Source of the DNA: Escherichia coli
Lineage (GTDB): Bacteria; Pseudomonadota; Gammaproteobacteria; Enterobacterales; Enterobacteriaceae
Assembly (NCBI RefSeq): GCF_050920415.1
Contig: NZ_CP169309.1
Direction: 5' to 3' (one strand)
Length of the DNA: 64,000 nucleotides
Numbering within the stretch: position 1 is the stretch's first letter; every line of letters starts with the position of its first letter. Position numbers and translations under genes: made by a program. The notes below the pieces were generated by a model that was given only the letters and a program-made list of their open reading frames with translations, made no database searches and was not told the origin of the DNA. Below are positions 3,495 to 33,419 of this stretch, one piece after another.

Positions 3495-3948
3495 ATATGC
3501 CGCCCCAAAGGGCGGCATTCGGGCTTACTTGCTGTTCTGAAGGTTGTTAACCATCAGTAAATTGTTGCCGGAGGGACTCCGGTTATTATTTACCTCGGTT
3601 AACAGCGCACCAGAAACAATAAGTACGATACAGAAGTACCGTATCTTCATTGTGCGGTCCATGCGAAGACCGCATCACGACAGCACCACTGGCGATATTG
3701 CCGCGATAGCAAGCGCTGTGGGGTGCCTGCATTTACGGTCATGGAACATCCTTTCCTAAAGCCAGCGCCCGTTTGCGAGACGGCGAAAAGGGCCGTCACG
3801 AATAATACCCTCATATTTGAATAATTACTCTATTTATTATCTTGACTTAGCCAGGCATAAAAGAGAGTATTTCAACACTGTGGGGTGCCTGCGTTGCTCC
3901 GGCAACACAAGTCAACCTGCTGGAAAGGCCGCGAACCAGACCAGCAAT
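3495..3948. ncRNA. ryfA: Intergenic region expected to carry the RyfA small RNA (boundaries and strand not resolved)
   Basis: Recollection that ryfA lies between sseB and sseA in E. coli K-12; region has hairpins (3499-3516, 3651-3675), a 15-nt direct repeat ctgtggggtgcctgc at 3715 and 3878, and is flanked by a bidirectional terminator. Confidence 0.3.
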
Positions 3949-3976
3949 AAAAAACCGCCAAATTCGGCGGTTTTTT
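3949..3976. terminator. Bidirectional rho-independent terminator (aaaaaaccgccaaattcggcggtttttt)
   Basis: GC stem with A-tract upstream and T-tract downstream, just past the sseA stop. Confidence 0.65.
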
Positions 3977-3992
3977 ATTGCCTGTAAAAAGC

Positions 3993-14202: not shown

Positions 14203-14213
14203 TAGCCATTACG

Positions 14214-14250
14214 CCACGGTTACTTTATGTACCGTGGCGTAATCTTTTAT
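14214..14250 (+). terminator. Candidate rlmN terminator (ttacgccacggt...accgtggcgtaa hairpin then T-rich run)
   Basis: 12-bp perfect inverted repeat immediately after the rlmN stop. Confidence 0.5.
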
Positions 14251-21916: not shown

Positions 21917-24109
21917 ATGTCACAGGGGATGTGCATGCTGCGATGGAAACGCTGTATTATGCTAACATTTATCTCTGGAGCTGCTTTTGCGGCTCCAGAG
22001 ATAAATGTTGAGCATAAAGAATCGTTACCTGATTTAGGTAGTCAGGCCGCACAACAGGAAGAACAAACCAACAAGGGTAAATCGCTAAAAGAGCGTGGTG
22101 CCGATTACGTCATTAACTCTGCCACGCAAGGGTTTGAAAACCTGACACCCGAGGCGCTGGAGTCCCAGGCCAGAAGCTATCAGCAAAGTCAAATTACCTC
22201 TACGACACAATCTTATATTGAGGATACACTCTCCCCCTACGGTAAGGTCCGAACGAATCTTTCTCTTGGTCAGGGCGGCGATCTGGATGGCAGTTCCATC
22301 GACTATTTTGTTCCCTGGTATGATAATCAAACTACTGTTTATTTCAGCCAATTTTCTGCACAACGAAAAGAAGATCGTACGATCGGGAATATTGGGCTTG
22401 GTGTAAGACATAATTTTGATAGATGGTTATTGGGTGGAAATATATTTTATGATTATGATTTTACCCGTGGGCATCGCCGTTTAGGTTTAGGCGCCGAAGC
22501 GTGGACTGATTATTTAAAATTCTCTGGCAACTATTATCACCCGCTTTCTGACTGGAAAGACTCCGAAGATTTCGATTTTTATGAGGAGCGTCCTGCGCGC
22601 GGTTGGGATATTCGCGCCGAAACCTGGCTACCCGCTTACCCGCAGATTGGCGGCAAAATCGTTTTCGAACAATATTACGGTGATGAAGTCGCGCTTTTTG
22701 GCACCGATAATCTGGAGAAAGATCCCTTCGCCGTCACGCTGGGTGTGAAATACCAGCCCGTACCACTCATTGCCGTAGGAACGGATTTCAAAGCCGGCAC
22801 TGGCGATAATACCGATCTTTCTGTTAACGCAACGCTGAACTACCAGTTTGGTGTCCCGCTCAAAGACCAGCTTGATCCTGACAAAGTGAACGCGGCTCAC
22901 TCGCTCATGGGCAGCCGCCACGACTTTGTTGAACGTAACAACTTTATTGTTCTGGAATACAAAGAGAAAGATCCGCTCGATGTCACTTTGTGGCTGAAAG
23001 CCGATGCGACGAATGAACATCCCGAGTGCGTGATTAAAGATACGCCAGAAGCAGCCATCGGGCTGGAAAAATGTAAGTGGACCATTAACGCGCTCATTAA
23101 TCATCACTACAAAATCGTTGCTGCCTCCTGGCAGGCGAAAAACAATGCTGCACGTACGCTGGTGATGCCGGTTATCAAAGAAAATACGCTTACTGAAGGT
23201 AACAACAATCACTGGAATCTGGTGCTGCCTGCCTGGCAGTACAGCTCTGATAAAGCCGACCAGGAAAAACTCAATACCTGGCGGGTACGGCTGGCGCTGG
23301 AAGATGAAAAAGGCAATCGGCAGAACTCCGGCGTGGTGGAAATCACCGTTCAGCAGGATCGTAAAATTGAGCTCATCGTTAACAACATCGCCAATGTACC
23401 GGATGAGAACAATCACAGCCACGAAGCCAGCGCGCAAGCGGATGGTGTAGATGGTGTCGTCATGGATCTCGACATTACCGATAGCTTTGGCGACAACACT
23501 GACCGTAACGGTAATGTCTTGCCGCAGGATAATCTCAGCCCGCAGCTGTTTGATGCCAACGATAAAAAAGTGACGCTGACGAATAAACCCTGCACCACTG
23601 AAGTGCCGTGCGTTTTTATCGCCAAACAAGATAAAGAAAAGGGGACCGTTACGCTCTCCAGTACGTTGCCCGGTACTTTCCGCTGGAAGGCGAAAGCCGC
23701 CCCTTATGATGACAGTAACTATGTTGACGTAACGTTCCTGGGTTCTGACATCGGCGGGCTGAATGCTTTTATCTACCGCGTTGGTGCAGCTAAGCTCGTC
23801 AATCTTATCGGCAACAAAGAACCGTTGCCTCTCAATAGCCGCTATCGCTTTGTGCTGTGGCGCGACGCTAACAAAGACGGCGTGTTCCAGCTTTCTGAGA
23901 AGCTCACTGACGACGAGATGAAACAGTATGACTATCAGTGGGAATTCACGGGGAATAGCGTAAATGGCAATACCGGTGCGCAAACCAATACCACGAACGT
24001 CGATATAGAGATTCCGGCAACCAACAAGGACGCGGCAGCAAAGTTTAGTGCCCAGGTAACCGATGGCGTGCAGGGATACGGTTTGCAGGTCAATTACAGC
24101 AAGAAATAG
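21917..24109 (+). CDS. sinH: Intimin/invasin-family inverse autotransporter (SinH-like outer-membrane adhesin)
   Basis: 730 aa; signal peptide; beta-barrel region typical of intimin/invasin (YFVPWYDNQTTVYFSQFSAQRKEDRTIGNIGLGVRHNF); preceded by AT-rich leader 21726-21916; start among ATGs at 21917/21929/21935 uncertain. Confidence 0.75.
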   Translation: MSQGMCMLRWKRCIMLTFISGAAFAAPEINVEHKESLPDLGSQAAQQEEQTNKGKSLKERGADYVINSATQGFENLTPEALESQARSYQQSQITSTTQSYIEDTLSPYGKVRTNLSLGQGGDLDGSSIDYFVPWYDNQTTVYFSQFSAQRKEDRTIGNIGLGVRHNFDRWLLGGNIFYDYDFTRGHRRLGLGAEAWTDYLKFSGNYYHPLSDWKDSEDFDFYEERPARGWDIRAETWLPAYPQIGGKIVFEQYYGDEVALFGTDNLEKDPFAVTLGVKYQPVPLIAVGTDFKAGTGDNTDLSVNATLNYQFGVPLKDQLDPDKVNAAHSLMGSRHDFVERNNFIVLEYKEKDPLDVTLWLKADATNEHPECVIKDTPEAAIGLEKCKWTINALINHHYKIVAASWQAKNNAARTLVMPVIKENTLTEGNNNHWNLVLPAWQYSSDKADQEKLNTWRVRLALEDEKGNRQNSGVVEITVQQDRKIELIVNNIANVPDENNHSHEASAQADGVDGVVMDLDITDSFGDNTDRNGNVLPQDNLSPQLFDANDKKVTLTNKPCTTEVPCVFIAKQDKEKGTVTLSSTLPGTFRWKAKAAPYDDSNYVDVTFLGSDIGGLNAFIYRVGAAKLVNLIGNKEPLPLNSRYRFVLWRDANKDGVFQLSEKLTDDEMKQYDYQWEFTGNSVNGNTGAQTNTTNVDIEIPATNKDAAAKFSAQVTDGVQGYGLQVNYSKK

Positions 24110-24164
24110 GGTCGGCGCCATGGCTGATCGGGCCACCGCTGAATATTAATCAAGGAGAGTGTTT

Positions 24165-25157
24165 ATGAAACCTGATATGAAACGTGGCCTGACAAAAGTC
24201 GCGCTCGCGTTGATGCTGGCTGGATACTGTGCCGTACCAGCCGCTATGGCGGAAGATGCCGCCTGGGTCGCCAGTGGAACGACCGCTGAATTCGAGGGGA
24301 CTATACCCTGGCTCTATCGCGAAGGGGGGAATGCCACGATTAACTCGGAAGATGCGGATCACATTAAAGTGACGTCTGATGGTAAAGGGACCCGTCCTGA
24401 AGGTAGCGAGACGGATAAACGCCTTTACTCAGGGGATACCATCACGCTGGGTTGGGATATCGGCGATACCGAAGGGGATATTGATGATGGTCCCGCAGGC
24501 ATTGATGCGAAAACGACAGCCACTATCAAATGGTACAGTTACAGCGATAATGCGGGTGGCGGTAAAACGGAGCTGACCGCAGCGGCAGGCAAGACGAGTT
24601 ATAAACTCACTGATGACGAACGTGGGCGTTATATCGGTGTTGAAATCCAGCCCATCACCCAGACCGGTAATCCTTTCCAGGGAACGTCGCTGACTCTGCT
24701 GGATATTTCAACGGCCAGCGGTGGCGGCAGCGATACGGACAATGTCGATCCCGGCCCGGTTGTGAACCAGAATCTGAAAGTTGCCATCTTCGAGAAAGGC
24801 ACCACTACCAACCTTATCGGTGGTAATACGGCCATTGCGCTTAACAAAACGTATGTGGCCAAACTGTACTCGGATGAAAACCAGAACGGTAAATACGACG
24901 CAGGTACGGATATGGACGTTACCGCTAACTATGACTTTGCATGGGTCTTTAACGGTAACAGTAAACAACTCGGTGCGGCGGGCGGTATTGCTAATGCCAG
25001 CTTCGATAACAATGACATTGTTATCCCGCAAACTAACGAAGAAGCAAGAACCAGCCTTAACGGTAGTGACCGTAATGGTAAGAGTGGTCTTGCGATCCCG
25101 GCAAACGGCGACGGCGTTCAGGGCTATACGCTGTCAATTATTTACAAACACCACTAA
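24165..25157 (+). CDS. Secreted protein, SinI-like; paralogous to the SinH C-terminal passenger region
   Basis: ORF 24159-25157; ATG at 24165 with RBS aaggagag; signal peptide; C-terminus ...GDGVQGYTLSIIYKHH parallels SinH ...DGVQGYGLQVNYSKK. Confidence 0.5.
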   Translation: MKPDMKRGLTKVALALMLAGYCAVPAAMAEDAAWVASGTTAEFEGTIPWLYREGGNATINSEDADHIKVTSDGKGTRPEGSETDKRLYSGDTITLGWDIGDTEGDIDDGPAGIDAKTTATIKWYSYSDNAGGGKTELTAAAGKTSYKLTDDERGRYIGVEIQPITQTGNPFQGTSLTLLDISTASGGGSDTDNVDPGPVVNQNLKVAIFEKGTTTNLIGGNTAIALNKTYVAKLYSDENQNGKYDAGTDMDVTANYDFAWVFNGNSKQLGAAGGIANASFDNNDIVIPQTNEEARTSLNGSDRNGKSGLAIPANGDGVQGYTLSIIYKHH

Positions 25158-25197
25158 TGCGCACAACAGCATTCCCATACGGGGATGCTGTTTTCCG

Positions 25198-25249
25198 CCT
25201 GTTTTGCTTAGCGACGCGTTAAGCAAAACAGGTTGATGTTTTGTTTATC
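25198..25249 (+). terminator. Strong hairpin (13-bp perfect arms cctgttttgctta / taagcaaaacagg) followed by T-rich tract, between sinI-like and ratA-like genes
   Basis: Inverted repeat read directly; could be a terminator or attenuator in front of ratA. Confidence 0.4.
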
Positions 25250-26209
25250 ATGCTGGAGTTTTCTACATGTCGGTATGTCTGAAACCTGGGAAAATCATTA
25301 TGCTTCTGGGCATGTTGGCAGCTTTTATGCTGTCTGACTTTGCACGGGCAGGGGCGGAATGGCAGACATATCCTGATTCTACAGGCGAGTTTAACGGAAC
25401 CGTTCCTTTTGCCGACAGCGCCAGCGTACCCGTCTATCAGGGCAGTGTTCAGCTTAATCCTGCTGAATCTCATGATGTCGGGTTTACTGCTAAACCGAAT
25501 GAATTTAGCGTTGACGATGACGCTGCTAACCTGATTGTTGCTAATCCTCAGGACAATGAAGGCGACCAGTTTTCCACACCACCTGCGCTGCGCTGGGAAA
25601 ATCAAACACCCCCTACCGTCAGCCTGATGTGGGCCGATGCCGCCACGCCCGATGTGCCCCTTAACCCACAACCCATTGCTAACCGTAGCTTTTGCGCTCA
25701 GGGGCTGGCCGGACGCTCGCTGGTGGCCTGGCCGCAGATTGATGCGCAGCAAACCCTCCCACTGCTCTACCTGCTTACCTCGACCGGGTATCCCTATGCG
25801 GGGACGGTGGCGCTGGTGGACCAGAAAGTGACCCTGAACATCGCGCCCGCGCAGGGCGATTTAATCTCGGTGAGCGCCAGTGGTTATAACGAAACGATCG
25901 CGGCGGCAAAAACCACCGTTGGCGACACCATCACGCTCACCGTCACCACTAAAGATTGTCAGGGCAACGTCGCGGGTAATATTCCGTTTATTATCAAACG
26001 TAAAGATGCTGAAAATCGCCAGGGGGCGGTGAATAATAGTGCGCCGGTGATACTGGATAGCACCGAGTTAACGACGACGGATACCGAATACCATGGCACT
26101 TCTGATGCCAACGGCACGGCCACCATCACGGTGAGCCAACCGAATGGCCCTGGCGTCAAAACGCCATTGGTGGTCAGCATCTCCGGTTTTGCGCAAACCA
26201 GCGAAACCG

Positions 26210-29200
26210 CGGTGATTTTTACGGTACTCACCAGCCCGGACGTGGCGCAGGCTACGATGTGGGGCCATATGGCGGAGACGGTAGAAGCCCACGGTTACAC
26301 CTTCAGTCGACCAAAGCTGGCGGCAGAAGTCAGCAATGAAAGCGCCACGGTCGTCGATCATAACGAAACCTGGTCCACCTTCACCTGGAGCGGCGCAGAT
26401 AGCCACTGCACCGTGCTGCCCGGCATGCGCCACTTCGGCGCGCTGGCGACCGTTATCCCCACGTCGGTGCAGACAGTCCTTGGCTGGCCGATGCAGGGGG
26501 ATTATTACTGGTCATCGCTGGCGGGCACCACCGGGCACCACCGGGCAGCACCATGCGGCGGATGTTTCAAACCGTGGTGAAATGCAAAAGCCGGATAGCA
26601 CCCCGTTTCTTGTGAGCTGCGTGGATAAACCCGCGCCTGACGTCGAACCGAAAATCGTCCTTACGCCCGAAAACTATGATGATACGGCACAGGCGATGAA
26701 AGCGAAGGTGGGTGAAGACGCCTCGATGCGTCTGACAATCACCGACAATAAAAATAACGATCAACCGCTGGCGTATTACTACTTCTCGCTGCATCTGGAT
26801 GACGGTGTTAACCGCAAAAATCAAACCGATCCTGCCTGGGAAGCCCATCCGGTGCAGATTACTGGTGGTTCGAATTTGCAACAGGTTGATGCTCACACCT
26901 ATGAAGGCATGACCGATGTCAACGGTCAGGCTTCGCTAACCCTGAGCCAGCCCGACGGCGCAGGCGTGAAAACCCATATCACGGCGAAAATGCGCAGCAA
27001 TTTTACGGCCACGGATGCCAAAGACGTGATTTTTACTGTGATCACCAGTCCGGACAGCGACAAGGCGCGGATGTGGGGCCATATGCGCGGCATTGTTGTA
27101 TCTGGCAGTCTGTTCAAACGCCCATTACTTGCGGATGAAACTGAGCATGAACTGGGATCGGTGCGGGAAAATAACGAAGACTGGGCGCTGTTCGATCAAG
27201 ACACCAGTATGCAGGCAGAATGCGGTGTGGGCCATATACCCCGGCAGAGTTCGCTGGAAGGCTTATTTACTGCCCATCCAGGCAACGCCATCGGCACGGA
27301 ATATGGCTGGCCCACCGCACAACAGAGCTACTTAAGCGCGGCGGAGCAAGCCACGCATTCATCGGTGAATTTGGCGAACGGGAGCGTCGACAGCTACTCC
27401 GGCTTTAAGCGAAATTATCTCTCCTGTTCGGGCAATGAGATGGTAGCGAACGTTGAAGTCAGCACCGATCACGATATTACTCTCGGCAGCAAAGCACAGG
27501 CCAAAGTGGGAGACACCATCGTGATGACCGTGCGTACGATTAACGCGCTCAATAATACCCCCGTTCCCTTTACAGCCTTCACCATCACTAAAGGCATGGG
27601 GTATAACCGAGCGGGGCAGGTGAGCGGGTTTGATGACCCGAGCAGCGGCGCAATCACGATGAATGGCACGCAATACGGCACATCGCAGCCCTCTATGGTC
27701 TACACGGGTACGACAGATGCACAAGGTGTAGCAACGGTCGAAATAGAGCAACCCCAAGGGGTGGGGTTAAGAACCGTGCTGAGCATTACGCCGGTCAATT
27801 CCCATCTACCAAATGCCATTAATTACAATGTTATTTTTACCACCCCAACCAGCCCGGATGTTAGTGGGGCGCAGATGTGGGGCCATATGGATGAAACGAT
27901 TACCGTTGATTCATTAACCTTTACCCGGCCTAAGCTGGCAGCAGAAATCACCAGTCCGGATGGCACATTAACGGAAAAAAACGAAGTCTGGGCGCGTGTT
28001 AGCCAGGCAAGTACGGCCATTACCAGTAAAGGCGGTTGCGGAGCCAATATGCTGCCGCGCCGCTCACAGCTCAATGCGCTCTATGACGCTAATAACGGCA
28101 ATGCGGTGCAAACCACACACGGCTGGCCGACGCAGCGTCAGCCCTACTGGAGCAGTTCCCCCGCGGATGTAACGCCGCACTATTACACCATTGCCCTGGA
28201 TAACGGCGCACAGGCTATCGGCGGCGATACGCCGGTTTACGTCAGTTGCCTGACGACGGCGAACAAACCTGCCAGCAGCATTACGTTGGATGTGGTTGAT
28301 AACGCACAGTGGGCTGCCGGAAATAACGCGGCGAAGCTGAAAAAAGGCGAAACGCTACGGGTTAAGGTAACGGTAAAAGATGCGCAGGGTAATCCGCTCA
28401 CGGATATGCCATTTAAACTCAGTCGCGGAGACGGTTATACCCGCACGGGCGAAAAACATATTGCCGGTAGTGGCGATGCGCTGGTGGCACCGGTGGTGAT
28501 TAACAGTGGGCTGGCGGATGAAACGACGTTGAACGACACCGCGGGATTTTATACTGCCATGACCAGTAGCGACGGCAGCAAAATCCTCAATATTACACGC
28601 CCGGATACTCACGGCACCAAAACGGCGCTGACGGCGACGCTTTACTCTGATGCGACGAAAAAAGACAGCCTGGATACGATCTTTACTGTGGTCACCAGCC
28701 CGGATAGTAGCAAAGCGAAAATGTGGGGCCATATGCCGGAAACCTTAACGGCGGCAGATGGTACCGTTTTTAAACGCCCATTGCTGTTAAAGGAACTGTC
28801 AAGTCAGACCGGGCGAACATCAATATTCGAAGACAATGAAAACTGGGCGCTGTTTACCCAAACCCAGGCGAACTCAACCAGTAGCGGCTGCGGCGCTAGC
28901 TATGTTCCCACTCAGGCTGGGTTGTTGTCGTTGTTTGATAATCACGCCGGCAATACCATAAAAACCGTCCAGGGCTGGCCGGTTGTAACGCGTTATTTAT
29001 CCAGCACGCCCGACAACACTGGCATGGAACAGCGTAACTACAAAGCGGTGGATCTCGGTAATGGCACCAGTGCCATGGTGTCAACGTCGACACTGGATCT
29101 ACTGACCTGTCAAACCACGCCGGTCACCACGGTGACCCAGATTCTACTGGAAGCGGCAGATCCTGCGGCTCTGGTTTATGTTGACGATACACTGAGTGTA

Positions 29201-32200
29201 GTTAAAGCCAAAAAAGGCGAAGAGTCGGTAGTGCGCGTCACCACGAAAGATGCGCAAGGTAACCCGGTTGGCAATGCGGCGTTTATTCTGAAACGTGCCA
29301 CCAGCATAAACCGGAGGTATACATCAGCGACAGCGAGTGCAGGTGCGCTGACCGTAGCCGATGCCTGGGGAAATACGCGGAGTAATTTTCAGGCAACAAC
29401 TGAAATGATCTATGGCGTGACGGGGGCTGACGGGTCGACAACCTTTACGCTGAAACAGGATAACAGTACCGGGTTAAGAACCGATCTCACGGCATCACTG
29501 GATGGCGTCAGCGGCGTTCAGGCGACCCTCCCGGTGGTCTTTACCGTGGTAACCAGCCCAGATTCTCCTAAAGCGAATTTTTGGGGGCACATGCCTGAAA
29601 CGGTAACGGCCTCTGATGGCATGACGTATAAGCGACCATTACTGTTTAAAGAACTTACCAATAACTATGCACGCTATAGCACTTTTGAGAATGGTGAAGA
29701 TTGGGCAAGATTCAGTGTGGTTCAGTCAAATAACACCGATATGGATGGATGCGGTGCAGAGTATATGCCGACACTGGATGGCCTGCAGTCTTTGTACAGT
29801 GCCAATAGTGGTAATGCGATGGGTACAGTGCAGGGATGGCCGGTAGCAACCAGTTATCTCACCAATACACCGAGTGATACGCAATTAAGTAACCGTTATT
29901 ACAATGTGGTGCAGCTGAATTCTGGCGCGGTTTCTCAAATCGTGACCACCGTGCTGGTATTACAAACCTGTCGCACAACACCTGCGGCTGTTGCCAGCCA
30001 CGTGTCTCTGGAGCCTGCGGACGCCACGCAATTCGTTAAGGTTGACGATAATCTGAGCGCCATTAAAGTGAAAAAAGGCGATGAGGTTGTTATTCGCGTC
30101 ACGACCAAAGATGCGCAAGGAAACCCGGTGGGTAATACGCCGTTTACACTGAAGCGCAGCAGTTCTTTCAATCGCCAGAATGTATTAGTGACGATGCAGA
30201 CGGTTTCGGTGACACCCGCAGCGGCCAGTACAGTTGATACCAATGCATCGGCCACCGTGTATGGCGTGACCGGGCCAGACGGAACCACCACGATAACACT
30301 CCGACAGGATGCGTCCACCGGACTTAAAACCGACTTTTATGCCCTGTTGAATGATACCGGGGTGTCGTCGAACACCTTGCCAGTGATCTTCACCGTCGTC
30401 ACCAGCCCGGATACACCGCTGGCGGCCAACTGGGGGCATATGGCGGAAACCTTTACCAGCAGCGAAGGCGTCACCTTCAAACGGCCTTTCCTCAAAGCTG
30501 AACTTTCTGGTGGTACGGCGGTTACGACTAATAATGAAGTCTGGTCGCGTCTGACAGCAACGGAGAAAATGGATGCCAGCAAGGCTGGATGTGATGAGAG
30601 TTATCAACCGCTGATGACTGACATGCAGGGGTTGTATGCGGATTACCCTAACAACCAGTTGGGCACGGTGCTCGGCTTGCCGACTTCCGCAGGGTATATG
30701 TGGGCCTACGACATGATGACGGTTTCTGGCAGCAGCTGGAGCAACCAGGCATATTCGCTCGTTAATGGTCAGATAGTTCAGGCATCGTCCAGTTATACGG
30801 CGGTAGTGATGTGCCTGGTGGAACCGCATACCGTTCCGGCGACGATAGCGATCACTTCAACAGCGCAGGATGTGGCAAAAACGGCCAGCAATGGTGGTCG
30901 ACCGAGCGCCGTGGCGAAGAAAGGTGAGACGATTCCGCTGACGGTGACCGTACGTGATAGCGCCGGGAACCCGGTGCCCTACGCCGACTTTACCCTCACG
31001 CGTGAAACGACGCTGGATCGCTCGAAAGCAACCGTTAACTCAAATGCGGACGATCTTACCGTGAAGTCATTGATACCCGTGAACAGCGACGCTGGGCTGA
31101 CGGCAAATGGGTCAAAAGTGCTCAGAACAACGGGCAGTGATGGCACAGCCACCTTTGAAGTGAGTCAGAATGCCACGACCGGTCTGGCGACACCGATAAC
31201 CGTCACGCTGGCGCGCGATACAACCAAAACCGCCACGCTGGATGTTATCTACACGGTGATAACCAGCCCGGACTCACCGAGCGCGAAATTCTGGGGGCAC
31301 ATGCCGGACACCTTTACCAGTTCGGCAGGCGTCACCTTCAGACGACCGCTGCTGAAAGCCGAAGCGACTTCAGGGTCATCGATTAGCACTAACGGCAATG
31401 GTGAAGTGTGGTCGTATATGAGCAACTTTCAAAATTTAACATCGACAGATTGTCCGCTGGAGAATCAACCGCGCAGTAATGAATTGTTGGATTTGTATAA
31501 TGATCATCCCAACGGTGCGATAAAGACTGACCTGGGGCTGCCGATATATGCAGGCAAGTGGTGGGCTTATGATATGGTCATGCCGGATTTATATACGTGG
31601 CAGTATCAAACTGTCAGCCTGAGCGCAGGAGATATCGCGAAGAGCTCGTCAACCAACGCGCTGATGCTTTGCCTGACGAAGCCGCATCCGGCAGGCGTCA
31701 GCGTAATGTTGACGTCATCCGCAATGGATAACGCCAGAACCCTCAGTAATGGCGGGCGACCCAGCGCGTCAGTGAAAAAAGGTAACCCACTGCCAATTGT
31801 GGTGACGGTCAAAGATCGTGATGGTAACCCGCTGGCGGGAGAGGCCGTGACGCTCAGGCGTGGTTCAGCGATGAGTCGTTCAGGAGCAGGAGTGAACACG
31901 ACGGCAAATGCAATTACGTTGACAGAATTGACACCTGTGTCGGCGGAGTTTTCTCTGGCCGCACACGATACGCAATGGCAAGGTTTCACCGGCAGTGATG
32001 GTACGGCCACTTTCAATGTTGAACAGCCTGAGACCATCGGCCTGGCCATTCCATTCACCGCTATACTGGCGCGAGATGTCGCAACTACCAGCGTTCTTGA
32101 TGCGATCTTTACCGTCGTCACCAGCCCGGATTCCGCAATGGCGACCTACTGGGGCCATATGCCAGATACGGTAACGGCGGAAAACGGCGTGGTCTTTGAA

Positions 32201-33000
32201 CGGCCTAAATTGTTGAAAGAGCTGCCGTCGAGCGCTGGAGTCAGTCAGGTGACGGATAACAATGAAGTGTGGCCGTTGTTTAACGCAACGCAAAGGGTAG
32301 ACGGCAACCTCAGCCCATGTGAATCGGCGCGTCGCCCATTGAGCGATGATTTATCATCGCTCTATGCGCGTTATCCGGGGAACACGCTGACGACTCAAAT
32401 CGGCTGGTCTACGAAGTATGCATGGTGGGCACTGGATAACAGGCAGGGGAATGCCCTGGTTGTCAGTCTGAGTAATGGTTTGGAGTCGTCGACGGCGAGT
32501 ACGGCGTATCAGGGATGTCTGGTCAATCCTCGCGCGACCGTCTCCAGCGTCACGCTGACATCGACCGCGATGGATGCCATTACTCAGGCGGCGAAGGTAA
32601 AAAAAGGTGAAGCCATGCCCATTGTCGTTACCGTAAAAGACAGCACCGGGAAGCCGGCACCGAATGTCGCGTTCACCTTAAAACGTGGTGATGCCGTGCC
32701 GCGTAACAGCGGGGCGACGTTGTATGGTAATGTTGCGGCGATGGATGATATGACGGTACAACCTGCCAGCGGGACGGTGGTAACGCTGGCTGACAGTGGG
32801 AATACGATTGATGGTGTGACAGGGGCGGACGGTACGGCAAGTTTTACTGTTCGTCAGGATAATACGCCAGGATATAAAACACCGTTGACGGTGACGCTGA
32901 CGGATAACGCCACAATAACGGCGACGCTGGACACAATTTTCACCGTGCCGACCAGCCCGAATGTCGCCACGGCGTATTTCTGGGGGCATATGGCGGATAC
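26210..33000 (+). repeat. Array of about nine diverged ~850-bp coding tandem modules within ratA
   Basis: Conserved DNA/protein core ttYaccgtggtcaccagcccggat...tggggccatatg recurs near 26210, 27040, 27830, 28680, 29540, 30390, 31250, 32100, 32940. Confidence 0.7.
26523..26552 (+). repeat. Three tandem copies of a 10-bp unit (gggcaccacc, gggcaccacc, gggcagcacc) at the ratA frameshift
   Basis: Read directly; removing one copy restores a continuous frame reading ...[19 protein letters not shown]... Confidence 0.8.
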
Positions 33001-33419
33001 CGCCACAGTAAGTGGCAAGACGTTACATCGCCCGCTATTGAAATCAGAGTTGCCGTCAGGGGCTACAGCGGCAGTGGCGCCAACGGTGAATAATGAAATC
33101 TGGGCGCTGGCACATGTGATCGATGCTCAAAAATGGGATGTTGCAAAGCAGTGCGGTGACTTTAGTAAAGCACCGAGCTATACCGATTTACAGTCATTAC
33201 ATAGCAGCTTTAGCGCGCTGGGATGGCCATCATCGATAAGCTTCCCCTATTTCTCTACCGATCGGGCCGGTTCGTTCTATTGTGGCATGGATGAAGGGGC
33301 GGGGACACAAAACTGCGGTATTCAGGCATCCAGTACTGCGGGGTTTGCAACCTGCTTCCAGTAGTCTTAACGGGTCTGTAAATGGGGGCCAAGATGTAAA
33401 TAAGATTCGCAATGCGTCA

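Follow-up and report, generated by a model that had tools for sequence, protein, structure and literature searches.

A covarying two-hairpin RNA module between sinI and the giant adhesin gene ratA in Escherichia coli and related bacteria

What does a perfectly paired hairpin do in the short gap between sinI and ratA, two neighboring genes of an adhesin locus in Escherichia coli? In the 64,000-nt stretch of chromosome analyzed here (contig NZ_CP169309.1, hereafter the window), the two genes are separated by a 109-nt spacer that carries no annotation. The hairpin that stands out in this spacer, here termed H2, had been put forward in a preliminary description as a signal that may terminate or attenuate transcription before it enters ratA. 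Our results reveal that H2 is one half of a bipartite sense-strand RNA module, which is conserved, covarying, present in single copy, and tied to ratA. That this module is a functional cis-acting RNA is, in our assessment, very likely; what each of its halves does is the subject of the more graded arguments below.

The two-hairpin module and its conservation

The features by which H2 had been singled out all hold. Its arms, CCTGTTTTGCTTA (25198-25210) and TAAGCAAAACAGG (25220-25232), are perfectly complementary over 13 nt and stand 9 nt apart; the distance from the sinI stop codon (25155-25157) to H2 is 40 nt; and a T-rich run, TTGATGTTTTGTTTATC (25233-25249), follows on its 3' side, with the ratA ATG (25267) another 17 nt beyond the run. 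On the + strand, to which sinI, ratA, and the module elements belong, the full stem spans 25197-25233 and comprises 17 pairs, 7 of them G-C, with G.U pairs at 25197/25233 and 25211/25219 and an ACG loop at 25214-25216. Folded as RNA, positions 25195-25250 reach -26.2 kcal/mol, compared with -10.4 +/- 2.5 kcal/mol for 200 dinucleotide shuffles (z = -6.4, with none as good), and for 25150-25275 as a whole the energy is -51.9 kcal/mol (z = -6.2). Further, perfect hairpins with arms of at least 13 nt were absent from 30 dinucleotide-preserving shuffles of the 64-kb window, in which the largest arms reached 11 nt.

Directly upstream of H2, and separated from it by a gap of about 4 nt, lies a second strong hairpin, H1 (25165-25192), that the preliminary description did not contain. 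Its core, CAGCATTCCC (25167-25176) and GGGGATGCTG (25181-25190), encloses an ATAC loop and is extended by two basal A-U pairs, which gives a stem of 10-12 bp in the window, (AA)CAGCATTCCC / GGGGATGCTG(TT), followed by TTTTCC. The two hairpins are joined by a U-tract and conserved linker, TTTTCCGC (25191-25198), the Us of which form the tail of the putative H1 terminator, while its TTC (25193-25195) and GC (25197-25198) double as the 5' base of the H2 helix. In most loci, the linker is conserved as T(3-5)CCGC. Together, H1, the linker, H2, and a conserved GTTGA flank make up a module at 25163-25237, which a covariance model (R1) recovers with 88.9 bits (E = 1e-19).

The distribution of this module was established on sinI loci gathered through the SinI protein rather than through the motif itself. 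H1 followed by H2 was found between sinI and ratA in all 19 of the species-level loci obtained in this way, and the module is also present in Salmonella enterica, Salmonella bongori, and five further loci (among the sources being Pseudocitrobacter cyperus, further Escherichia, and a metagenome bin). It occurs at every sinI-ratA junction examined, even though SinI identity falls to 38-45% and the remainder of the spacer cannot be aligned. Among 5426 complete E. coli genomes, 763 carry the module, always once per genome, and the locus itself was counted in 752-763 of them, once each and always on the chromosome. Model R1 has a sole full-length + strand match in the window, at 25163-25237 (with a minus-strand echo of 29 bits), and a single copy in 21 kb of the Salmonella island, where no H2-like element was found at the ratA-ratB junction, including with this model. 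A scan of metagenome contigs with the H2 core pattern returned 54 matches, 43 of them between homologues of sinI and ratA; the remaining 11 (about seven distinct sequences) have neither H1 nor the CCGC flank and are consistent with chance. Plasmid and phage collections yielded no module match, which, together with the single copy per genome, rules out a repetitive extragenic palindromic sequence or bacterial interspersed mosaic element (REP/BIME), or any other dispersed or mobile element. Likewise, nothing in Rfam 15 came near its gathering score, the best hits being 20 bits in the window (mir-1468, gathering score 95) and 19 bits in the Salmonella junction.

Covariation, computed on 31 distinct sequences, supports both helices. 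Pairing holds in 99.4% of cells for H1 and in 93.9% for H2, and compensatory changes affect 7 of the 10 pairs of the former and 7 of the 17 of the latter; the observed pairing values were reached by none of 500 shuffles, and registers slid by one to three columns drop to 36-51% paired. Within H2, G.U combinations vastly outnumber A.C combinations (73 vs 2), and the selected structure is thus that of the sense-strand RNA. The helix is not uniform along its length. Its middle, TTTGCTTA (25203-25210) with TAAGCAAA (25220-25227), is nearly invariant across 25203-25227 save for an apical part of 8-9 nt that is free; as RNA, this 8-bp mid-stem reads UUUGCUUA/UAAGCAAA and is invariant or changed at one position in 30 of the 31 sequences. 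The four pairs below it covary freely, and the apical two to three pairs and the loop are unconstrained. Two lineages are especially informative here: in Escherichia albertii, the mid-stem carries a compensatory double change from G-C to A-U (TTTACTTA/TAAGTAAA) along with a 17-nt apical insertion, and in Leminorella it reads UUUUGAAAAG/UUUUUCAAAG, in which CUUA/UAAG is replaced by AAAA/UUUU with the helix kept. An insertion and a replacement that both leave pairing in place point to an RNA helix and not to a dimeric DNA operator.

The helix also reaches beyond the arms that are evident in the window. The conserved 3' flank GTTGA(T) (25232-25237), of which GTTGA is present in 28 of the 31 sequences, pairs with the TTCCGC flank through C25195-G25235 and T25194-A25236, leaving C25196/T25234 mismatched. 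These basal pairs are well kept (U-A in 30 of 31 and C-G in 30 of 31), and one lineage shows a compensatory change from C-G to U-A. As RNA, the flanks UUCCGC and GUUGAA are nearly invariant and pair as U-A, U-A, C-G, a C.U mismatch, G.U, and C-G, which lengthens H2 to about 21 positions (20 pairs and 1 mismatch) and takes in the last Us of the H1 U-run; the same basal extension appears when the Salmonella and B2 versions are folded. The A/U-rich H2 helix is built from the last Us of the terminator and CCGC, a covarying lower stem, an invariant mid-stem with a central G-C/C-G, a free apical part, and GUUGAA. This UUCCGC-H2-GUUGA unit remains intact where insertions part H1 from H2, as in loci L008 (REP-containing) and L017.

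Three independent insertions have struck the module: a REP/BIME-containing one within H1 of Escherichia sp. E1V33 (L008, 4560-4780), one between H1 and H2 in Escherichia sp. MOD1-EC7003 (L017, 4880-4975), and one in the apical loop of H2 in E. albertii (L016, 4945-4965). They have the string GCAATCTGA or CAATCTG in common and possibly derive from a single small element. Locus L002 (NZ_CALSBS010000019, labelled Pseudocitrobacter vendiensis) encodes a SinI that is 100% identical to that of the window, and its junction is identical except for two substitutions in early ratA, a likeness that is surprising across genera and points to a recent transfer or to a mislabelled or contaminated assembly. 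L080 (metagenome contig ERZ772937.8677) is a mosaic, with a SinI 46% and a RatA N-terminus 69% identical to those of the window and a window-type H1, as are L010 and L020, whose SinH N-termini are 76-80% identical and whose SinI proteins are just 42-45% identical. Recombination breakpoints seem to lie near the conserved junction.

Terminator anatomy of the two hairpins

The earlier proposal is supported in part: an attenuating signal between sinI and ratA is well supported, but the hairpin whose canonical terminator anatomy is conserved is H1. Across loci, H1 has a GC-rich stem of 10-13 bp with CCC/GGG at its top and a loop of 4-5 nt, begins 7-13 nt past the sinI stop codon, and is followed by a U3-U5 run in 26 of 29 loci. 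A terminator discriminant of the d'Aubenton-Carafa 1990 type (computed with modern energies, the values being approximate) is positive for H1 in 23 of these 29 loci; for H2 it lies below zero at each of the 29, the window scoring best at -7.9. In Salmonella, Citrobacter, Pseudocitrobacter, Superficieibacter, and other Escherichia, the tail of H2 reads UUGAAAC, UUGAGGUAA, and similar. The T-rich run at 25233-25249 is lineage-specific, being confined to the window, B2 strains, and near-identical sequences; in the window the tail is interrupted (UUGAUGUUUUG) and does not form an uninterrupted conserved U tract. The window further carries a perfect-stem variant of H2 (CAGG), where B2 strains have CGGG.

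Taken together, these patterns suggest that H1 is probably an intrinsic terminator, and one that is expected to be leaky, given its short U-run (three to five Us, then CCGC). H2, judged on its comparative record, is not a conserved terminator and has a conserved function at the RNA level that is linked to ratA; in the window's E. coli clade, it may add some termination by way of its newly acquired U-rich tail. For genome annotation, the lesson is that a conspicuous perfect hairpin need not be a terminator, as comparative data here moved that role to a plainer neighbor.

Several other structures and motifs overlap the two hairpins. An alternative hairpin (25220-25230 / 25237-25247) can form between the T-rich run and the 3' arm of H2, and a switch based on this pairing was rejected, being confined to the window's clade. 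A GGGGA/UUUCC hairpin that would compete with H1 (25180-25197) was likewise set aside, as it is weak and lacks conservation of its outer pairs. At 25232-25248, GGTTGA-TGTTT-TGTTTA resembles, with one mismatch, the PhoP box (T/G)GTTTA-N5-(T/G)GTTTA; this look-alike, which at 19 nt from the ratA start codon is too near to it to serve a promoter, is found in the window's E. coli clade only and is probably fortuitous.

The possible role of H2 and competing explanations

A first indication of what H2 is for comes from the genes that it accompanies. Three distant sinI-like loci, recovered by profile search, have a small immunoglobulin (Ig)-like gene downstream and carry only an H1-like terminator (for example, GGGGCTGCAAAGCCCCTTTTCC), with no H2. 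Leminorella, in which the downstream gene is RatA-like (52% identity, over 1100 aa), has an H2-like helix. Thus, missing where the giant ratA is missing and present in Leminorella, H2 goes with ratA and not with the 3' end of sinI. In addition, a simple consensus scan of the + strand between 22299 and 25956 returned no sigma-70-like site, which, together with the 109-nt length of the spacer, suggests that ratA depends on read-through, most likely from the sinH promoter.

From these observations, we tentatively favor, at slightly short of an even chance, a reading in which H1 is a leaky attenuator and H2 a double-stranded RNA element of the ratA leader, possibly an RNase III-type processing or stability site. 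In this scheme, H1 and its UUUU would act as a leaky intrinsic terminator that ends most transcripts after sinI, and the resulting attenuation would set a high ratio of sinHI to ratA, the latter having no recognizable promoter of its own. Those transcripts that read through would carry H2 in the ratA leader, where a cleavage or stability site could let the sinHI and ratA messages meet different fates. What we infer from sequence is that H1 terminates transcription, that the genes are co-transcribed, and, most tentatively, that RNase III or other processing acts on H2; the specific claim that H2 is an RNase III-type double-stranded RNA processing or stability site is, taken by itself, possible but doubtful.

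The case for RNase III is one of resemblance. Known substrates have an idealized length of 22 bp, favor G-C/C-G between the two cuts, and need A/U at positions 2 and 4 of the proximal box, and the sites are enriched in regions that are intergenic but within a transcript (PMC3867540, PMC6212723, PMC1540722). The H2 helix, at about 21 positions, agrees with the length of about 20-22 bp, or two turns, that is given for RNase III sites (PMC3867540). Its central G-C/C-G (25206-25207) has three A/U pairs on each side and so fits the rules stated in the text of PMC1540722 and PMC6212723, the cut site being putative. Further, about 10 positions away from its center H2 has a wobble and a mismatch, and its presumed setting is intergenic within a transcript.

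Several points weigh against this reading as a whole. Most important, the preferences of RNase III are loose and cannot account for an 8-bp stretch that is invariant across genera, and this is the main fact that the reading leaves unexplained. Also, only 6-7 bp and the loop lie on the apical side of the putative cut site, a short stretch. As regards H1, the discriminant that favors it is approximate, being computed with modern energies, and a consensus scan of the window lists H2, and not H1, as terminator-like; the latter outcome follows from the H1 tail having only 4 T in 8, where the scan requires at least 5 T in 8. Finally, the absence of a ratA promoter was judged by a simple consensus scan, and the distant loci lacking H2 number just three.

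One alternative is that H2 is itself a working intrinsic terminator and that H1 and then H2, in tandem, jointly shut off ratA, at least in this clade. H2 is indeed the top terminator-like site in a 16-kb scan (17 pairs, 7 G-C, tail TGATGTTTTG), its stem is very stable at -26 kcal/mol, the window has the perfect-stem variant (CAGG vs CGGG in B2 strains), and its discriminant of -7.9 is the best for H2 among the loci and near zero. Nevertheless, the discriminant of H2 stays negative across all 29 loci, the first 9 nt of the tail (UUGAUGUUU) are interrupted, and the U-rich tail is missing from all other genera and from other Escherichia lineages, in which H2 is still under strong purifying selection. 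Tandem termination would also leave the invariant mid-stem and the conserved flanks unexplained, and two strong terminators would give ratA no visible way to be expressed, such that we consider this explanation unlikely. A different possibility, which attends to exactly those conserved parts, is that H2 is a recognition site for an RNA-binding factor or for RNA polymerase, either as a platform of the Hfq/ProQ type or in a put-like antitermination, and that it controls giant adhesin genes of 8-20 kb. The invariant helical segment and both flanks, with the conserved C.U mismatch and basal G.U, suggest recognition that goes beyond pairing; H2 is present only where the downstream gene is of the giant RatA type; the leaders 3' of H2 are A-rich in most genera; and two hairpins with a short U-rich linker resemble both Hfq-binding modules and the two-stem put RNAs. 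Against these stand a regular, A/U-rich helix, a poor target for a sequence-specific protein, its preservation in Leminorella as a helix and not as a sequence, and a locus that offers no candidate protein. In addition, no ops/RfaH site is present, and the covariance model, applied to the HK022 immunity region (24000-32000), gave at best 17.5 bits for an ordinary terminator-like hairpin. A factor site is, on balance, distinctly unlikely, and its stronger form, in which H2 and its flanks are a dedicated sequence-specific riboregulator (acting through a protein, a complex of small RNA and chaperone, or RNA polymerase) of giant RatA-type adhesin genes, strikes us as improbable. If true, however, such a riboregulator would be needed for full-length transcripts or regulated translation of the 8-20-kb ratA(-ratB-shdA) genes of the CS54-type island across Enterobacteriaceae.

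H2 could also act by stabilizing a 5' end, if RNase E cleavage within the U-rich linker, or an unrecognized start there, gave a ratA message whose 5' stem-loop guards against decay, with H1 protecting the 3' end of sinHI. The principle is familiar from the 5' hairpins of ompA and from processing of the pap operon; here, the helix begins in the conserved UUCCGC right after the U-run, and the UUCCGC-H2-GUUGA unit stays whole when insertions shift H1 (L008 and L017). However, the region upstream of the linker has no conserved promoter-like sequence, the U-run lies partly within the base of H2 in the full-length RNA and so is not single-stranded, and the invariance of the mid-stem is again left unexplained; we give this explanation little credence. 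The remaining alternative removes RNA from consideration altogether and takes the palindrome TTTGCTTA-N9-TAAGCAAA to be a DNA operator for a dimeric transcription factor that regulates ratA. Its half-sites are nearly invariant, their spacing is 8-9 bp in 30 of 31 sequences, and TA-N9-TA fits the loose T-N11-A pattern of LysR-type regulators. Yet the substitutions are strand-specific (G.U vs A.C, 73 vs 2), the covariation reaches 6-9 positions past the half-sites, the 17-nt insertion between the half-sites of E. albertii is accompanied by compensatory and not degenerative changes, and Leminorella retains the pairing and not the sequence. Nor is there a conserved -10 or -35 partner downstream, the start codon being only 34-48 nt away. 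A DNA operator is accordingly the least credible of these alternatives, and extremely unlikely.

Other candidates were tried and rejected. For antitermination by ops/RfaH, the motif GGCGGTAGnnTG is absent from the + strand in or near the operon, and the four matches with one mismatch found elsewhere correspond to chance expectation. A nut-like boxA/boxB/boxC arrangement is contradicted by the candidate boxA positions, which covary as stem pairs and so leave no conserved single-stranded boxA. For a sigma-70 promoter with GTTGA as its -35 element, none of the lineages conserves a -10 at a distance of 16-18 bp, and the start codon would be too near; consensus sequences for sigma-32, sigma-54, and sigma-E promoters, compared by eye, showed no fit. 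Long-range partners for the arms of H2 elsewhere in the operon amounted to just scattered 7-mers in coding sequence. A tiny open reading frame (ORF) at 25184-25210, ATG CTG TTT TCC GCC TGT TTT GCT TAG (MLFSACFA*), begins in the 3' arm of H1 and ends within H2; it was dismissed in view of a U-run that varies between 3 and 5 nt and so gives three frames, a locus (L007) with no start codon, and the lack of a usable Shine-Dalgarno sequence. A peptide of the form M/V-x-F-S-A-x-F-A* is encoded in about half of the loci, as a by-product of nucleotide conservation.

The locus, its significance, and known systems

The window is from the E. coli chromosome, and a test kilobase of it is 100% identical to strain MFDS1022581; the record NZ_CP169399 is likewise 100% identical. 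Its genes are ordered der, a zinc-ribbon gene, sinH, sinI, a frameshifted ratA-like giant adhesin gene, and xseA, and the gene assignments made at the outset were borne out: SinH has an inverse-autotransporter beta-domain (E = 5e-105), the next product is a SinI-family protein, and the giant adhesin has BIg21/InvE_AD domains. sinI, annotated as a gene for a SinI-family autotransporter-associated lipoprotein, occupies 24159-25157 and ends in TAA at 25155-25157, according to the ORF list and to the Prokaryotic Genome Annotation Pipeline (PGAP) on the identical record; 117 homologues of its product carry the SinI family name. The ratA-like gene (25267-33364) is 8.1 kb long, encodes eight BIg21/InvE_AD repeats, and consists of two overlapping ORFs, 25267-26580 and 26336-33364 (437 aa and 2342 aa, overlapping at 26336-26580). 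A ribosome-binding site, GGAG (25255-25258), precedes the start ATG (25267-25269), which is also the PGAP start in NZ_CP169399, and the N-terminus translated from there is signal-peptide-like, with the BIg21/InvE_AD domains after it. The annotation of NZ_CP169399 lists the gene as a "frameshifted" pseudogene, and the copy in E. coli SE15 is intact (8082 nt). Given that the twin hairpin is still perfect beside the frameshifted gene, the decay of ratA appears to be recent.

The strongest hairpin in the window lies elsewhere in the operon: a perfect 18-bp inverted repeat at 21964-22009, AACATTTATCTCTGGAGC ... GCTCCAGAGATAAATGTT with a loop of 10, sits within the sinH ORF, at the signal-peptide codons. 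Other Escherichia loci retain this repeat, with a compensatory change (GGAGC/GCTCC to GGTGC/GCACC), but it could not be discerned in Salmonella or Citrobacter; a role in controlling sinH translation or mRNA stability is possible. Strong hairpins are also found at 3944-3981 and 14208-14243; AAAAAACCGCCaaattcGGCGGTTTTTT, with 16-bp arms, looks like a bidirectional terminator, and CCATTACGCCACGGttactttatgtACCGTGGCGTAATC, with 13-bp arms and just past a stop codon, is terminator-like.

The genes sinH, sinI, and ratA (the CS54 island in Salmonella and iatB in E. coli) encode adhesins for colonization and persistence of Salmonella and extraintestinal pathogenic E. coli, and the module may bear on how much of the 8-kb ratA is expressed relative to its putative outer-membrane partner. 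Nothing on the junction or on transcription of ratA turned up in the full-text literature searched, and the one regulatory statement found for the locus places E. coli sinH (iatB) under LeuO/H-NS control (PMC6714894). The 75-nt RNA module is shared by E. coli and Salmonella, and as a structure also by Leminorella, over a range in which identity between the flanking proteins falls to 40%. Neither Rfam nor the searchable literature contains it, which makes it a candidate for a new cis-regulatory RNA family, although the kind of intercistronic control that this undescribed module represents is mechanistically familiar. It also offers a mutable handle on the locus, with H1 for stoichiometry by attenuation and H2 for post-transcriptional uncoupling through processing, stability, or factor binding.

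Measured against canonical intrinsic terminators, H1 conforms in its GC-rich 10-13 bp stem, 4-5 nt loop, U-run, and position 7-13 nt past a stop codon, and deviates in the shortness of that run. H2 of the window shares with them a strong stem and a U-rich tail, but the tail is interrupted and conserved in one clade only, and the stem is A/U-rich and twice the usual length. The closer likeness of H2 is to E. coli RNase III substrates, both T7 R1.1 and cellular (PMC1540722, PMC3867540, PMC6212723), with which it compares in length (21 vs 22 positions), in a central G-C/C-G amid A/U, in having a G.U and a mismatch at a distance of about 10 positions from the center, and in an intergenic-within-transcript or 5' untranslated location. 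It differs from them in that known substrates are degenerate in sequence where H2 is invariant, in an apical side shorter than the idealized 11 bp, and in its cleavage being putative.

Among whole arrangements, the favored combination of leaky attenuator and leader helix is reminiscent of the rplL-rpoB region in the rplKAJL-rpoBC operon of E. coli, where a partial terminator, or attenuator, is followed by an RNase III processing hairpin, an arrangement reportedly worked out by Barry, Squires & Squires around 1980. Both systems place a partial terminator inside an operon, after genes that are needed abundantly, and then a long hairpin that leads into very large genes, with dependence on read-through (here proposed). 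There, however, the elements stand well apart and RNase III cleavage has been demonstrated, whereas here H2 abuts and partly uses the U-tract of the terminator, its mid-stem is sequence-invariant across genera, and cleavage is putative. Adhesin and fimbrial operons also make use of attenuating stem-loops within the operon, for example, after papA or fimA, and in these, as is proposed here, a hairpin after the upstream gene tunes the stoichiometry of surface-adhesion components; those, however, are single hairpins after a major subunit gene, and the present element is bipartite, with a giant passenger-like adhesin as the component that would be tuned down. Finally, the put RNAs of HK022 are two adjacent stem-loops that make RNA polymerase resistant to termination. 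The module shares with them two adjacent stem-loops, a total of about 70 nt, a position upstream of a long transcription unit, and a predicted action in cis on the sense transcript, and it differs in that the covariance model detects no similarity and in that H1 resembles a terminator rather than part of an antiterminator.

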